A stretch of DNA of 64,000 nt from a phage. Positions 49,464-62,494 of this stretch are shown here, in pieces. The position numbers and the translations under genes are program-made. The stretch lies in the sequence record PZ296772.1; one strand, given 5' to 3'. The first letter of the stretch is position 1. The number at the start of each line of letters is the position of its first letter. Below the pieces are notes generated by a model that saw only the letters and a list, made by a program, of their open reading frames with translations, was not told the origin of the DNA and did not search any database.

Positions 49464-49476
49464 TTTTCACAAAACA

Positions 49477-49506
49477 GTTTACATAAGGATGATGGTGTGT
49501 TACTAT
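49477..49506 (+). promoter_or_regulatory. early promoter (sigma70-type)
   Basis: GTTTAC, 18 nt, TACTAT, then CATCCTATCAA. Confidence 0.65.
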
Positions 49507-49540
49507 CATCCTATCAAATAAACAGCCTCAAGGAAATAAA

Positions 49541-49828
49541 ATGAAAACCTATAAAGAATTTATATCACCTGTTGCTAACGTTTCTACTCTGACCGAAGCA
49601 TCCCTTACTTCTGAAGTTATTAAAACAAATAAAGGACGTGAGGGTAAACCAATGATTAGTCTGGTTGACGGCGAAGAAGTAAAAGGTACTGTTTACTTAG
49701 GGGATGGATGGTCTGCTAAGAAAGATGGCGCTACTATTGTTATCTCTCCGGCTGAAGAGACTGCACTGTTTAAAGCTAAGCATATTTCTGTAGCTCAGCT
49801 TAAAATTATTGCAAAAACTCTTCTGTAA
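49541..49828 (+). CDS. internal (head-packaged) protein with capsid targeting sequence
   Basis: 95 aa; N-terminus MKTYKEFI; LTE cleavage-type motif; early promoter upstream; ipI locus position. Confidence 0.75.
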   Translation: MKTYKEFISPVANVSTLTEASLTSEVIKTNKGREGKPMISLVDGEEVKGTVYLGDGWSAKKDGATIVISPAEETALFKAKHISVAQLKIIAKTLL

Positions 49829-49831
49829 GTA

Positions 49832-49870
49832 GTTTACATGTTGATAGGACTATGTTATAGTAGTCCTATC
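49832..49870 (+). promoter_or_regulatory. early promoter with palindromic stem-loop cassette
   Basis: GTTTAC, 18 nt, TATAGT; 10 bp inverted repeat GATAGGACTA / TAGTCCTATC spans the -10. Confidence 0.65.
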
Positions 49871-49893
49871 AAAACAACCAAATGGAACCTAAA

Positions 49894-50157
49894 ATGAAAA
49901 CTTTCAACGAATTCATCTCAGAATCGTCTGGTGTGAAAATTAACAAAGCGGTCAATCAGGTTATTGTTGATATTCTTAATTTGTATAACATTGACTTAAC
50001 TCCGCATATCACGCTTGGTAACAAACGAAACTTTTTCATATTTGACACGTCTGAACTTGATGAAAATCAGTTCAATAACATTCAACGTTTTGCGAATGAT
50101 AAAGGTCTTCGACACGAGCCTGGTGGCTATAAAAAATACGCAATATATTTGAAATAA
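49894..50157 (+). CDS. internal protein-like with capsid targeting sequence
   Basis: ORF 49882..50157 trimmed to MKTFNEFISE; ISE after CTS; early promoter upstream. Confidence 0.65.
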   Translation: MKTFNEFISESSGVKINKAVNQVIVDILNLYNIDLTPHITLGNKRNFFIFDTSELDENQFNNIQRFANDKGLRHEPGGYKKYAIYLK

Positions 50158-50159
50158 AG

Positions 50160-50199
50160 GTATACAAGCCTATAGGGATATGATATAGTAGTCCTATCA
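50160..50199 (+). promoter_or_regulatory. early promoter, degenerate copy of stem-loop cassette
   Basis: GTATAC, 18 nt, TATAGT, then TAGTCCTATCAA. Confidence 0.55.
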
Positions 50200-50226
50200 A
50201 AACAAATGAGTAAATGGAGAAATAAA

Positions 50227-51582: not shown

Positions 51583-51661
51583 GAATTATGTGTTATTATT
51601 AATTCATACCATCTATTACCAAAGGTGCTCTAAAGTGCCTTTCATAATAGAAAGTTATTTA

Positions 51662-51735
51662 GGCCCTGTAGCTCAACGGTTAGCAGCAGTCCCCTCATAA
51701 GGGAAAGGTTACCAGTTCGAATCTGGTCTGGGTCA
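51662..51735 (+). tRNA. tRNA, anticodon CAT (Met or Ile2 type)
   Basis: Hand-folded cloverleaf: acceptor GGCCCTG/CTGGGTC (one mismatch), T arm ACCAG-TTCGAAT-CTGGT, anticodon loop CTCATAA; 3 bp D stem. Confidence 0.6.
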
Positions 51736-51741
51736 TATATT

Positions 51742-51818
<77 letters not shown>

Positions 51819-51836
51819 ACTTTAAGTGAGGAAAAT

Positions 51837-52181
51837 ATGAAAGGCAATGTTTATCTGGTAGTTCATGATTTAACGTTTTATTTTAACGAATATGATACAG
51901 TTATTTCTCATCGATTGATTAATTCGCTGTATCAGCATGCCGATTACATCTATGTTCAAAATGAATTTGGACATTGGAAGTTCATTAAAAACCGTTCTGG
52001 GTTAACTAGTTTTGAATACTTTGACCGTAAAGACCTTTTAAACGAAATCCCGTTGCAACATCGGTTCCAGAAACGTGAATCATTATATTATTGCCGTCAT
52101 ATACCAAACGCCGAATGTGTTAATGAAGCGATTAATCTATGGCGTCGGCGTCGAGAGCAAATTGATGATATGCCAAAATAA
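51837..52181 (+). CDS. hypothetical protein
   Basis: ORF 51789..52181 trimmed to first ATG after the tRNA (track ORF overlapped the tRNA). Confidence 0.5.
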   Translation: MKGNVYLVVHDLTFYFNEYDTVISHRLINSLYQHADYIYVQNEFGHWKFIKNRSGLTSFEYFDRKDLLNEIPLQHRFQKRESLYYCRHIPNAECVNEAINLWRRRREQIDDMPK

Positions 52182-52351
52182 GAAGCCGGGTCGCTACCGG
52201 CAAGTCGTCGGACTGATGTTCCCTGAATAAGACCCGACTTTAAGGCGTACATGAGTTGACATCTTAAAGTCCCTTATCTCACAGCAGAAACGGCGCACAG
52301 AATTATCGATTCGAGGAAATATCTTTGCCGTAAGCCGAGTAGCGTTTTTGA

Positions 52352-52443
52352 CGGAACGTTCGGATATGGTCGAGATATGGCCTTTTAAAAATATTGAGTA
52401 GCGTCAACTACTTAATAACCGGGTTCGAATCCCGGCGTTTCGT
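52352..52443 (+). ncRNA. tRNA-like element in structured non-coding region (candidate small stable RNA or degenerate tRNA)
   Basis: Canonical T arm CCGGG-TTCGAAT-CCCGG plus acceptor pairing CGGAACG/CGTTTCG; no canonical anticodon arm; in a 330 nt ORF-free stretch ending in a terminator. Confidence 0.3.
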
Positions 52444-52495
52444 ACAAACACTTGCCTTAGCAGGTGGAACCCCGACAAGGTTGCCGCAAGGCTTA

Positions 52496-52522
52496 GCCCC
52501 TTCCGAAAGGTTGGGGCTTTTT
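52496..52522 (+). terminator. intrinsic terminator
   Basis: GCCCC-TTCCGAAAGGTT-GGGGC then TTTTT. Confidence 0.65.
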
Positions 52523-52567
52523 GGTATAATAATAAATAGATAAGTTAATTAACTTAGGAAAAGCAAC

Positions 52568-53032
52568 ATGAAATCATACGCTGAATTTTTGACTGAACAA
52601 TCTAGTTCAGATGTAAAAGCCGCTGCGATTGCAGCAATTCAAGCAGGTAAATATTCTTACAAAGACGCCTCCGATGAAGAACGTTTCCGTTTTATTAGAG
52701 ATTTTAAAGCCGAAGGTTTTACTAATGCTAATACTGTTAGCCGAGTTTTTAAAAGCCTAGCTGCATCAGGTGAATTGTTCCAGAAAGCTACAGGTAAAGC
52801 ACCTGCGCCAAAAGCGGACCCTAAAACAGCTCAAGAAAAAAATATCGCCAAAGGAATTATTTCTAAGTATGAAGCAATTCTTAAAGAGCTTTTAGTAATC
52901 AAAACAGAAGGCCAGAAACTGGCACGAGCACATAGTTTCAAAGATAATCCTCACGCTCATAGCCTTGAGTATGTTGAAGATATCCAAAAACTTATTAAAG
53001 ACCGTATCTGGTCTGCTAAACAAATTAAATAA
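52568..53032 (+). CDS. internal protein-like with capsid targeting sequence
   Basis: 154 aa; N-terminus MKSYAEFLTE; flanked by near-identical terminator hairpins. Confidence 0.65.
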   Translation: MKSYAEFLTEQSSSDVKAAAIAAIQAGKYSYKDASDEERFRFIRDFKAEGFTNANTVSRVFKSLAASGELFQKATGKAPAPKADPKTAQEKNIAKGIISKYEAILKELLVIKTEGQKLARAHSFKDNPHAHSLEYVEDIQKLIKDRIWSAKQIK

Positions 53033-53038
53033 TAGAAT

Positions 53039-53065
53039 GCCCCTTCCTTACGGTTGGGGCTTTTT
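53039..53065 (+). terminator. intrinsic terminator (near-duplicate of 52496-52522)
   Basis: GCCCC-TTCCTTACGGTT-GGGGC then TTTTTGGTAT. Confidence 0.65.
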
Positions 53066-53098
53066 GGTATCTAGGGCATAAAAATATTTCATAAAGAT

Positions 53099-53127
53099 GT
53101 TTACTTCTTCTAAGGACATGATACTAT
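53099..53127 (+). promoter_or_regulatory. early promoter (sigma70-type)
   Basis: GTTTAC, 17 nt, TACTAT, then AGACTTATCAAC. Confidence 0.65.
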
Positions 53128-53155
53128 AGACTTATCAACCGCAGAGGAAAATGTT

Positions 53156-53461
53156 ATGAGTCTTTATACTGAACTGAATAAAAAATCTGAAGAATCTGCT
53201 GAAACTATTTTTAAAAACGTGCAAAAGCGTATTCTAGAAAAGATGTATAACACTGCAGCTAAAGGTGAAAAATCTTGCCGGTTCCCGATGAGGTGTTCTT
53301 CTGATTTATGCGCAAATACTATTGAATGGCTGGAAAGTGAAGGTCTTACGGTAGAGAAAAACCCGGCGACTTCTATTGATAGCGAATCATATATTAGTAT
53401 TTCTTGGGATAAACCTCGTACGAATGAAGGACACTACAAGTTGTTAAGTTGGAAAAATTAA
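53156..53461 (+). CDS. hypothetical protein
   Basis: 101 aa ORF with GAGGAAA SD and early promoter. Confidence 0.55.
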   Translation: MSLYTELNKKSEESAETIFKNVQKRILEKMYNTAAKGEKSCRFPMRCSSDLCANTIEWLESEGLTVEKNPATSIDSESYISISWDKPRTNEGHYKLLSWKN

Positions 53462-53470
53462 AAATAACGA

Positions 53471-53499
53471 TGTACAAGCACCAAGGATGGTGATACTAT
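53471..53499 (+). promoter_or_regulatory. early promoter in repeated cassette
   Basis: TGTACA, 17 nt, TACTAT; downstream leader identical to 17081-17125. Confidence 0.6.
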
Positions 53500-53529
53500 A
53501 GACTTATCAACTACAGAGGAGTAAACAAA

Positions 53530-53694
53530 ATGACTACTTTAATTATTTGGTTCGATGAAAATGAAGAAACATACTGTGTGAATATCGGTGAAAGTCCAAT
53601 GCCTGAATTTGAATCCTCAGATAAAAACTCTGTTGTATCTTGGGCTGAAGGTTATAAAGCCGCTAAAGGTGACGTTGAAATAATTTACATCTAA
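53530..53694 (+). CDS. hypothetical small protein (not in ORF track)
   Basis: 54-codon ORF MTTLIIWFDENEETY; leader identical to that of the 17120 gene including GAGGAG SD. Confidence 0.5.
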   Translation: MTTLIIWFDENEETYCVNIGESPMPEFESSDKNSVVSWAEGYKAAKGDVEIIYI

Positions 53695-53712
53695 GTAAGT
53701 TTATGTTATAGT
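53685..53712 (+). promoter_or_regulatory. early promoter (weaker match)
   Basis: TTTACA, 16 nt, TATAGT. Confidence 0.45.
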
Positions 53713-53740
53713 AATCACATCAAATCAAGAGGAAAACAAA

Positions 53741-56573: not shown

Positions 56574-56771
56574 ATGTCTCGTGAATTAGATTGTGCTGTA
56601 CGTACCGCGGTAGCTGCTCTAGAAAACCTGTTCCAAATTGCAACAGAAGAACGCGAAGAAGTTACATTATGGATTGAAGATAACGCAGGTCTGAATCTCC
56701 AGGACGCGATCTCATTATCTAATAATAGCATTACTGTTCAAGGCTGGGTATCGTCTAGTTATTCTTGCTAA
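56574..56771 (+). CDS. hypothetical protein, tandem paralog 3 (C-terminal QGWVSSSYSC)
   Basis: 65 aa; junction conserved. Confidence 0.5.
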   Translation: MSRELDCAVRTAVAALENLFQIATEEREEVTLWIEDNAGLNLQDAISLSNNSITVQGWVSSSYSC

Positions 56772-56775
56772 AACA

Positions 56776-56814
56776 GTTTACAATAAGATAGGACTATGTT
56801 ATAGTAGTCCTATC
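56776..56814 (+). promoter_or_regulatory. early promoter with palindromic stem-loop cassette
   Basis: GTTTAC, 18 nt, TATAGT; inverted repeat GATAGGACTA / TAGTCCTATC identical to 49843-49870. Confidence 0.65.
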
Positions 56815-56833
56815 AAATTAAATGGAGTCCGCA

Positions 56834-60595: not shown

Positions 60596-61084
60596 ATGAA
60601 TATATTTGAAATGCTTCGTAATGACGAAGGTCTTAGACTGACTTTATACAAAGACACTGAAGGCTTTTGGACTATTGGCATAGGCCATTTAGTAACAAAG
60701 AACCCGTCTTTAGCCGTAGCTAAAGCTGAACTTGACAGAATGATCGGTCGTAAATGCAACGGTACAATTACACTTGATGAGGCTGAAAAGCTATTTAATG
60801 AAGACGTTGATAAAGCCGTTCGCGGAGTCTTGGGTAATGCTAAACTTAAACCGGTATATGATTCTTTAGATGCGGTTCGTCGATGTGCATTGGTCAATAT
60901 GGTCTTCCAAATGGGTGTAGCAGGCGTCGCCGGTTTTACTAATTCTCTTCGTATGCTTCAACAGAAACGTTGGGACGAGGCGGCAGTAAATCTAGCCCAA
61001 TCTAAATGGTATCGTCAGACACCTAATCGCGCGAAACGCGTAATCTCAACATTTAAAACAGGAACTTGGAAAGCGTATATATGA
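60596..61084 (+). CDS. e: endolysin (T4 lysozyme)
   Basis: ORF 60584..61084 trimmed to MNIFEMLR; catalytic E11/D20/T26 conserved; matches remembered T4 lysozyme. Confidence 0.95.
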
Positions 61085-61362
61085 AAACATATAGTGAATT
61101 TTTATCAGAATCTATTCTTAGCGAAGCTACTGACACATTTGCAACTAAGCTAGGTGCAGCTTTGGTTGAAGCTGAAAGTCTATTAGCACGTATTTCTGAA
61201 CTTGCTAGTAAGATAGATACTCGCAAATTTGAGCGCACCAGTGATATCGTTAAGCTTGAAGCATTGTTGCGCATGTGTGATAAACCAGAAGAAATCGCTA
61301 AGAACGGTTCGCTGATGAAACAACGTCTTGAAAAATATATTTCAGGCGCTTCAGAAAAATAG
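61081..61362 (+). CDS. internal protein-like with capsid targeting sequence
   Basis: ORF 61066..61362 trimmed to [10 protein letters not shown]; ATG overlaps e stop. Confidence 0.65.
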
Positions 61363-62164: not shown

Positions 62165-62494
62165 ATGAAAACGTATAAAGAATTTATCACTGAAGTTACA
62201 TTATCTGCGGAACAGAAAGCTGCTATCGAAGAAGGTAAAAATCCCAAAGTAACATATAAAGTAAATAGTAAAGGCGTTTTTGATGGTTTGGTTCAAGACC
62301 CTGAATTGAAAAAAGCTCTTTCTAAAACTAATGCGTACTTTGCTCCTAAATTTAACACAGCCGGTGTACTTATTGGATTGGATGTATTCAACTCTAAAGG
62401 TGTTCTATCTAATGCCTTTGGTTATGCCGCTAACAAAATTACCAAAGCTGCATGGGAATCCAATACCAAACAAGCTCAAAAGCCTAGAGTATAA
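62165..62494 (+). CDS. internal protein-like with capsid targeting sequence
   Basis: 109 aa; N-terminus MKTYKEFITE; first 8 codons near-identical at nucleotide level to the 49541 gene. Confidence 0.65.
   Translation: MKTYKEFITEVTLSAEQKAAIEEGKNPKVTYKVNSKGVFDGLVQDPELKKALSKTNAYFAPKFNTAGVLIGLDVFNSKGVLSNAFGYAANKITKAAWESNTKQAQKPRV

Follow-up and report, generated by a model that had tools for sequence, protein, structure and literature searches.

Why should a single phage gene lie between two nearly identical transcription terminators? The question is raised by sequence record PZ296772.1, a 64,000-nucleotide stretch of phage DNA (hereafter the window, numbered from its first nucleotide), in which a gene encoding a 154-residue protein (gene A, 52568-53032, + strand) sits between two hairpins that are each followed by a run of Ts. 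An initial annotation of these letters had read the arrangement either as a cassette inserted or duplicated by recombination, or as a gene whose transcription is insulated from that of its neighbours. A repeat search of the window recovers the two hairpin and T-run strings as they were quoted there, in the form of a 32-nt direct repeat (family D5) at 52496-52527 and 53039-53070 that is 29/32 identical (91%) with a spacing of 543 nt; the ends given earlier, 52522 and 53065, are those of the hairpin plus its five Ts (T5) and not of the quoted 32-nt strings. All three differences fall within the 4-nt loop, which is GAAA in copy 1 and TTAC in copy 2, and the stem, the T-run and the trailing GGTAT are the same in both window copies. 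The stem (GCCCC-TT-CC / GG-TT-GGGGC) contains seven G-C pairs around a tandem T.T mismatch (i.e. a U.U 2x2 internal loop in RNA), and RNA folding gives minimum free energies of -16.0 kcal/mol for copy 1 and -16.3 kcal/mol for copy 2. With up to three mismatches allowed, a pattern search locates only these two sites in the 64 kb and none in 100 dinucleotide-preserving shuffles. The earlier description of the copies as directly flanking gene A is a fair one, as the T5 of copy 1 ends 45 nt short of the ATG at 52568, and copy 2 begins 6 nt past the stop codon (53030-53032), both on the + strand.

Judged by sequence, each copy has the features of an intrinsic terminator, namely a G+C-rich stem-loop and a U-run at the sense-strand 3' end of a transcription unit. 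Copy 1 (stem-loop 52496-52517, T5 52518-52522, then GGTAT) lies 51 nt past the homologue of rnaC (species 1 RNA; ~52306-52444, + strand, located by alignment to the annotated rnaC of T4 and ATK47), which is the last member of a unit comprising tRNA-Met, tRNA-Arg, ORF150c and rnaC. The intervening 51-nt trailer (52445-52495, + strand) is conserved, with hardly any differences among T4, RB32, RB69 and the window. Because rnaC and then this trailer directly precede copy 1, we take copy 1 to be the terminator of the tRNA/rnaC unit; copy 2 (stem-loop 53039-53060, T5 53061-53065, then GGTAT) is the candidate terminator of gene A. Broida and Abelson are said to have placed the end of the T4 tRNA operon at this hairpin in 1985. 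The RB69 counterpart of the copy 1 hairpin, which is identical to it, is listed as a TransTerm terminator with a score of 100 (Nolan 2006 supplement), and the records of phages SA79RD and PhAPEC2 annotate both hairpin copies as terminators (ARNold, WebGeSTer). A simple terminator scan of the window called neither copy on account of the T.T mismatch, and an Rfam search of 4 kb in E-value mode returned two tRNAs only and matched neither rnaC nor the trailer nor the hairpins to any family. The mismatch itself appears to be favoured: IMG/VR hairpins with the 5' arm GCCCCTTCC have the 3' arm GGTTGGGGC in 60 of 71 matches, the fully Watson-Crick 3' arm GGAAGGGGC occurs once among them, and the Tequatrovirus copies at the rnaC slot are fully paired (GA or AG). 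Hairpins of the GCCCCTTCC/GGTTGGGGC type stand in 39 distinct upstream contexts in IMG/VR (loci L007-L101), and their loops vary freely.

We consider it about 80% probable, for the explanation as a whole, that the two hairpins, as homologous copies of a single intrinsic terminator, have two jobs, one in transcription and one in recombination, and that gene A is a self-contained accessory module (late promoter, ribosome-binding site, leader-bearing gene and terminator) that occupies a variable slot and is exchanged at the repeated terminators. Comparative evidence argues strongly for the role in recombination; the steps in transcription and packaging are those that the sequence features would predict. 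The comparison draws on close relatives: positions 51600-53500 are 100% identical to Escherichia phages PTK and vB-Eco-KMB38 and 93-99% identical to many Mosigvirus members, and the window can be assigned by sequence to Mosigvirus, i.e. to an RB69-like T-even phage.

The evidence that carries the recombination role comes from relatives in which the slot is empty. The initial annotation had proposed looking for an empty site with a single terminator copy, and such sites are present in T4, T2, RB7, LF82-4, NBG1 and G2285. In T4, rnaC is followed by one hairpin (GCCCCGACCGAAAGGTTGGGGCTTTTT), then by GGTATCTAAGCCTTTCC (GGTATCTAAGCC) and e.8. A 221-nt query across this T4 junction aligns as one piece in T4, T2 and RB7 (full length) and in BYEP01 (96%), and it splits into two pieces ~555 bp apart in carriers of gene A. 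For the window's own genus, we built an artificial precise-deletion query by joining 52380-52522 to 53066-53210; it aligns as one piece over its whole length in the Mosigviruses LF82-4, ECO111 5-P, NBG1 and G2285. Alignment of LF82-4, NBG1 and G2285 reveals rnaC, one hairpin, and then the window's own right flank (GGTATCTAGGGCATAAAAATATTT..., the early promoter and ORF146c). The single hairpin of the empty site is therefore a hybrid, flanked as copy 1 is on its left and as copy 2 is on its right. Of the Mosigvirus examples, LF82-4 and NBG1 show a GAAA loop, as in copy 1; that of G2285 is TTAT, which is the copy-2 loop of ATK47 and SA79RD. Because the loop types differ between empty sites, crossovers must have occurred on both sides of the loop, which implies at least two events within the 27-nt repeat. 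Collapse of the repeat during assembly is an unlikely source of the empty sites, as they are seen in six independently sequenced phages, T4 included. Exchange between the two copies would delete gene A and leave one hybrid hairpin, and hairpin exchange between co-infecting phages could add, replace or concatenate modules; some 27-34 bp of identity should suffice for the T4 recombination system. In phage RB49, stem-loop cassettes have been demonstrated experimentally to terminate transcription and to recombine into mini-circles, and the same study quotes a homology requirement of <50 bp for T4 recombination (Arbiol 2010, PMC2839356).

The contents of the slot vary widely across the 20 loci that we compared. 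The slot is empty in T4; it holds gene A in the window, SF, RB32, RB68 and loci L035 and L083; it holds gene B, a different leader-bearing gene of 187 codons, in RB69, where it is frameshifted into ORF149c/ORF148c; it holds A followed by B in PhAPEC2, ChristianSchoenbein and the IMG/VR loci L036 and L048; and it is occupied by unrelated genes in L013, L047, L075 and OLB35. Every A or B module seen in full is followed by a hairpin and T-run, and where e.8 follows, the array ends in ...TTTTT-GGTATCTAGG. This last motif is a constant right-hand junction (53066-53075 in the window, + strand) that stands after the last terminator of the array in T4, RB32, RB68, RB69, PhAPEC2 and SF, in all of which it continues as CCTTTCC... 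into the e.8 upstream region. The bases past the T-run tell which module comes next: (A/G)GTATAAATA or GG(C/T)ATAATAAATAG leads into gene A, AGTTTGAATCAC into gene B and GGTATCTAGG into the constant region. This one hairpin is the joint at three boundaries: from rnaC to gene A, from gene A to gene B, and from the last module to the constant region. At the A|B joint of PhAPEC2, a Mosigvirus-type left flank and a TT-type hairpin are fused directly to the gene B leader. That leader, MKTYAEFLTEAAKL..., is found in PhAPEC2 (locus L089), RB69 (L003) and loci L088, L036 and L048. OLB35 (L091, ~579-700 of the oriented segment) has the copy-2 hairpin and then the gene B leader AGTTTGAATCTCTCAGAGAATGCTG..., but the open reading frame (ORF) that comes next is the homologue of ORF146c, as though a deletion had removed gene B with its terminator and e.8 and spared the leader.

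The sequence between copy 1 and gene A bears on the second reading of the initial annotation, that of insulation. A late-promoter-type motif, AATAAATA, with A at position -13, lies at 52531-52538 on the + strand, 30 nt before the ATG, and no early promoter is present in the 45 nt that separate copy 1 from this ATG. In Tequatrovirus orthologues, the matching place directly past the T-run is taken by a perfect TATAAATA; the T at -13 is often an A in most of the T4-like phages studied, RB69 among them (Nolan 2006). The reading agrees with this layout, in which each copy would end a transcription unit and the putative late promoter lies between copy 1 and the gene. Gene A would accordingly form a monocistronic late unit that is closed off at both ends: copy 1 would stop early and middle transcription arriving from the tRNA/rnaC unit, the AATAAATA motif would start late transcription of gene A, and copy 2 would end the gene A transcript ahead of the early promoter of the next gene. 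Gene A would be placed by this arrangement on its own schedule, being expressed while proheads assemble. A distant counterpart is found in Klebsiella phage RCIP0032 (locus L105, 1925-2560), where the tRNA cluster is followed by AGCCCCGTC-TTCG-GACGGGGC-TTTTT-AGTATAAATA, including a perfect TATAAATA, and then by a 177-residue leader-bearing protein that is homologous to gene A over its N-terminal half; the terminator downstream is unrelated. As RCIP0032 has the arrangement without the repeat, the putative insulated late unit is older than the direct repeat, which is a feature of the T-even clade. The sharing of the N-terminal half alone suggests domain shuffling within the gene A family. The segment from the copy-1 T-run to AATAAATA (52523-52539) varies in length by ATA/TAA units among Mosigviruses (CATAATAAATAG, (C/T)ATAATAATAAATAG and CATAATAATAATAAATAG), and PhAPEC2 has T9 in place of T5 ahead of it.

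How old is the arrangement, and in which direction has it changed? Between Mosigvirus and Tequatrovirus, nucleotide identity is 76% for gene A, 80% for e.6, ~97% for rnaC and 95% for gene B. We considered a recent insertion of gene A and rejected it, as its level of divergence matches that of e.6 and is unlike that of gene B. Since gene A is as diverged as its neighbours, it has long been resident in the slot of both genera, and deletion is the simplest reading of the empty sites. The reading as a cassette that recombination gains or loses is supported by the empty sites with a hybrid hairpin, with two corrections: the gene is single-copy in every genome, so that duplication does not apply to it, and, at 76% nucleotide identity, it is not a recent insert, which makes it an old cassette that has been lost repeatedly. 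Gene B has a different history. A 40-nt sliding comparison of PhAPEC2 with a Tequatrovirus locus drops from 100% to ~60% at copy 1 and reaches 95-100% across gene B, and the neighbours of gene B are 76-88% identical between the genera as compared to 95% for gene B itself, implying that this gene moved between the genera recently. The TT/TT stem is shared by the two window copies. In copy 1, all of the Mosigviruses examined are of the TT type; in copy 2, this type is found in the window, SF, ATK47, SA79RD and PhAPEC2 and is missing from ChristianSchoenbein, OLB35 and L072. In Tequatrovirus, GA or AG occupies these two stem positions in both copies, with a further C-to-T stem change in copy 2 of RB68. 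Variants also trade places between the copies, with GA/AG in RB32 versus AG/GA in L083, and the loop TTAC is that of copy 2 in the window and of copy 1 in ChristianSchoenbein. By these sequence patterns, the two copies appear to evolve together.

Several observations weigh against the explanation that we favour. The window has no exact TATAAATA upstream of gene A, and the motif that it does have, AATAAATA, is not canonical. The leader-bearing genes at 49541, 49894 and 62165 have early promoters upstream (none was seen before 61081). In ChristianSchoenbein, OLB35 and L072, both the end of gene A and the copy-2 flank are Tequatrovirus-like, which points to a crossover inside the conserved 3' end of gene A, so not all exchanges used the hairpin. 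The 22-nt stem-loop core occurs in many unrelated phage contexts, and similarity of the core alone is no proof of common origin. Finally, a segB-type homing endonuclease is encoded nearby in some relatives, and co-conversion could move the region without any role for the hairpin. One rival account holds the hairpins to be independent terminators of neighbouring units, alike as a favoured form (GCCCCTTCC...GGTTGGGGC plus T-run) and with no part in gene gain or loss. The stem, mismatch included, stands in the 39 IMG/VR upstream contexts, among them other T4-like loci and unrelated contigs; the gene A relative of RCIP0032 is flanked by two unrelated terminators; and the terminator downstream of gene B in RB69 is a different hairpin. 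However, in both genera the empty sites retain a single hairpin, with the copy-1 left flank, the copy-2 right flank and either loop. The similarity in Tequatrovirus also extends into the flanks (CTTA before the stem and GTAT after the T-run; the RB32 annotators gave a length of 34 bp), and variants of the stem dinucleotide and the loop are shared or swapped between copies within a genus. The initial annotation had named unrelated, independently conserved terminators as the case that would overturn its proposal, and the hybrid hairpins at the empty sites contradict that case; we regard this account of independent terminators as very improbable.

Two further accounts keep a role for the hairpin or for recombination but arrange them otherwise. 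The repeat might matter for expression only, the insertions and deletions being incidental products of homing-endonuclease co-conversion or of ordinary recombination in the flanks. The terminator, TATAAATA and gene order are indeed kept as far as a Klebsiella T4-like phage that lacks the repeat, genes for Seg-type endonucleases are found no more than 1-2 kb away in T4, RB32, RB68 and LF82-4, and SegB reportedly causes the tRNA region to be inherited preferentially (PMC2330249). Exchange in the flanking sequence would nevertheless transfer or replace alleles and not give precise hairpin-to-hairpin deletions with hybrid loops, and the A|B junction of PhAPEC2, which lies inside the hairpin, needs an exchange within the repeat; we regard this account as improbable. 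Alternatively, the hairpin could be the target of a dedicated structure- or sequence-specific recombination of the integron attC kind, with cassettes excised as circles and reinserted mainly by this route and not by general homologous recombination. In many genomes the junctions do fall at the hairpin, and the tandem T.T mismatch is oddly conserved across phages. The stem holds a GCCC/GGGC inverted motif of the kind found at about half of 13 T4 deletion endpoints (Mosig and colleagues, as relayed in Arbiol 2010, PMC2839356); the latter study raised the idea of a specific binding protein, and mini-circles have been shown for the RB49 elements. Against this stand the lack of any recombinase or endonuclease gene linked to the slot in the window, crossover points that vary within and outside the hairpin, and the sufficiency of T4 recombination on short homologies (quoted in Arbiol 2010, PMC2839356), and we hold a dedicated system to be unlikely, if slightly less so than a repeat that serves expression only. 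A related conjecture, about as improbable as the expression-only account, is that the hairpin, with its conserved U.U (T.T) mismatch, might be recognised by its structure, a phage or host factor initiating targeted exchange there. If true, T-even and other phages would use a common type of terminator element as an integron-like docking point for anti-defence cassettes with their own late promoter.

Homologous exchange at a repeated terminator thus remains our preferred explanation, and it leads to the question of what the exchanged gene encodes. The N-terminus of the gene A protein, MKSYAEFLTE, aligns with the leaders of T4 IPI, IPII and IPIII and with those of four other leader-bearing ORFs of the window. 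This class of leader is ~10 residues long (MKTYQEFIAE type), and L8-T9-E10 at its end in gene A conforms to the (L/I)-x-E prohead-protease-type site. The leader probably carries the protein into the prohead, where the prohead protease would cut after Glu10, and the protein would be injected with the DNA; the predicted processed form has an isoelectric point of 9.6. The initial annotation called gene A an internal-protein gene, a designation that is apt for the N-terminal leader, the one feature from which both it and the predicted packaging derive. The family (PHROG 2280) is one of unknown function, and the N-terminus also matches the PHROG family 'internal virion protein' weakly (E = 0.008). 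Pfam returned nothing significant for gene A (GemA, E = 0.07, falls below the cut-off). The AlphaFold model is all-helical with a predicted local distance difference test score (pLDDT) of 75; it has no meaningful fold match in the PDB, and its BFVD matches are uncharacterised phage proteins only. Relatives of gene A are found in 512 phage records, at one place in each, with ~72 at ≥90% identity (Mosigvirus type) and ~400 at 60-80% (Tequatrovirus type); only the N-terminal half is matched in some Klebsiella T4-like phages, and large protein searches add few relatives, nearly all relatives being T-even phage proteins. An A7 run lies at 52836-52842 within the gene, and public versions that shift frame exactly there end early (P0007-P0009); two-piece tblastn matches to gene A occur in phages ECO4 and PYps55T, and either sequencing error or real slippage could be the cause. 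A text search for RB32ORF133c or RB69ORF149c turned up no paper on this locus.

Gene A lies outside both classical internal-protein loci. It is located past rnaC, with the ipI locus (49.5-50.2 kb) on one side and the ipII/III-like genes (61-62.5 kb) on the other, and its slot, ~2.4 kb downstream of the ipI locus, represents a third internal-protein-like place. The surrounding gene order is RB69-like: 57B, internal-protein genes, tRNA.4-.2, ORF151c, tRNA-Met, tRNA-Arg, ORF150c, rnaC, the variable slot, (e.8), ORF146c, ORF145c, frd.3 and e.6. The gene e.8, which follows the slot in T4, RB32, RB69, SF and PhAPEC2, is absent from the window (region 53066-53098), where the sequence departs directly past GGTATCTAGG; the same e.8-less arrangement is seen in ATK47, SA79RD, LF82-4, NBG1 and G2285. 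The next gene has a T4-type early promoter (GTTTAC-N17-TACTAT, 53099-53127, + strand), which together with copy 2 makes a stem-loop and early promoter unit, and whose 30-nt -10/leader segment repeats at 53491 (family D8); the SA79RD annotators give GTTTAC(N14)gtggTAttaT as the consensus of such promoters. This gene, identified by sequence comparison as the RB69ORF146c homologue (53156-53461, + strand), is the first of the right constant region. A different repeat family of 56-65 nt (D1 and D2) occurs at 49472-49527, 49816-49882, 50144-50209, 53678-53733 and 56760-56826; each of its members consists of a T4 early promoter (GTTTACA...) overlapped by the inverted repeat GATAGGACTAT...ATAGTCCTATC. 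These repeats bracket the internal-protein genes 49541-49828 and 49894-50157, recur further on, and correspond to the classical internal-protein-locus repeat. The ORFs 61081-61362 and 62165-62494 also have capsid-targeting-type leaders and presumably form the ipII/ipIII-equivalent locus; one of them has an early promoter directly upstream.

How phages swap internal proteins helps to explain changes in host range and informs phage engineering: T4 IPI* blocks the GmrSD restriction enzyme, and internal proteins are injected counter-defence factors. The locus described here offers a natural series at one joint (empty, A, B, A plus B, replaced), in which crossovers can be placed with a precision of a few bases, and it is suited as a test bed for the model of recombination at regulatory cassettes. 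It also shows leader-bearing genes to occur beyond the two classical internal-protein loci. These findings leave the current view of T4-type genome plasticity as it was.

The closest known case is RB32ORF133c (RB32, NC_008515), a member of the same family (~74% amino acid identity) in the same slot between rnaC and e.8, whose record carries the note 'flanked by 34 bp imperfect direct repeat', without a mechanism or a comparison with empty sites. RB32 differs from the window in that its stems are fully paired (GA/AG as opposed to TT), both loops are GAAA, a perfect TATAAATA stands past copy 1 and e.8 lies past copy 2. The element works like the promoter-early stem-loops, or PeSLs (Arbiol 2010, PMC2839356; Comeau 2014, PMC4122927), short conserved regulatory cassettes of hyperplastic regions that combine a terminator stem-loop (G/C-rich in RB49) with an early promoter, flank and insulate variable ORFs, and act as linkers for insertion, deletion and replacement. 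Copy 2 has the PeSL layout, with the stem-loop followed by the early promoter at 53099-53127 and an ATG at 53156. With contents that range from none through A, B or both to other genes, the slot behaves as a hyperplastic region, and deletion products are seen here as natural empty sites with hybrid hairpins. Copy 1 is not a strict PeSL, however, as it is followed by the late-type AATAAATA and no early promoter, and the repeated part consists of the stem-loop, T-run and a few bases only. The PeSLs described in T-even phages (PST/T4) have A/T-richer AGNA-loop-TCNT stems (Comeau 2014, PMC4122927), in contrast to the G+C-rich stem found here.

The bracketing of leader genes by repeated regulatory sequences thought to mediate shuffling is also shared with the two classical internal-protein loci. 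Repoila et al. reportedly described there, in 1994 (EMBO J 13:4181), repeats of ~70 bp at ipI and ipII/III in which a T4 early promoter is overlapped by an A/T-rich inverted repeat. The shuffling idea for these two loci is credited to Repoila 1994 by both Arbiol 2010 (PMC2839356) and Comeau 2014 (PMC4122927), and GenBank annotates Ip7 and Ip9 ('flanked by 43 bp direct repeat') in a similar way to RB32ORF133c. The gene A repeat is not of this type, as it is a G+C-rich hairpin without a promoter inside; true examples are those at 49472, 49816, 50144, 53678 and 56760. Like the morons of lambdoid phages, gene A is a single ORF with its own promoter and terminator that is present or absent between the same neighbours. 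A foreign moron origin was nonetheless rejected on composition (37.2% G+C for gene A, 38.0% for the window), despite the promoter-like motif and terminator, and gain and loss here would proceed by homologous exchange at the repeated terminators; novel ORFs of T4-like phages are mostly not moron-like (Nolan 2006). Integron cassettes with their attC hairpins are likewise promoter-poor single-gene units with imperfect hairpin sites, arrayed in tandem at one locus, but no integrase is involved here, the hairpins are sense-strand terminators, and general homologous recombination is the simplest route, so the resemblance is an analogy only. The phenomenon is therefore a known one, a familiar T4-type way to shuffle accessory genes; what is new is the use of a G+C-rich terminator joined to a late-type promoter, at a third internal-protein-like locus.

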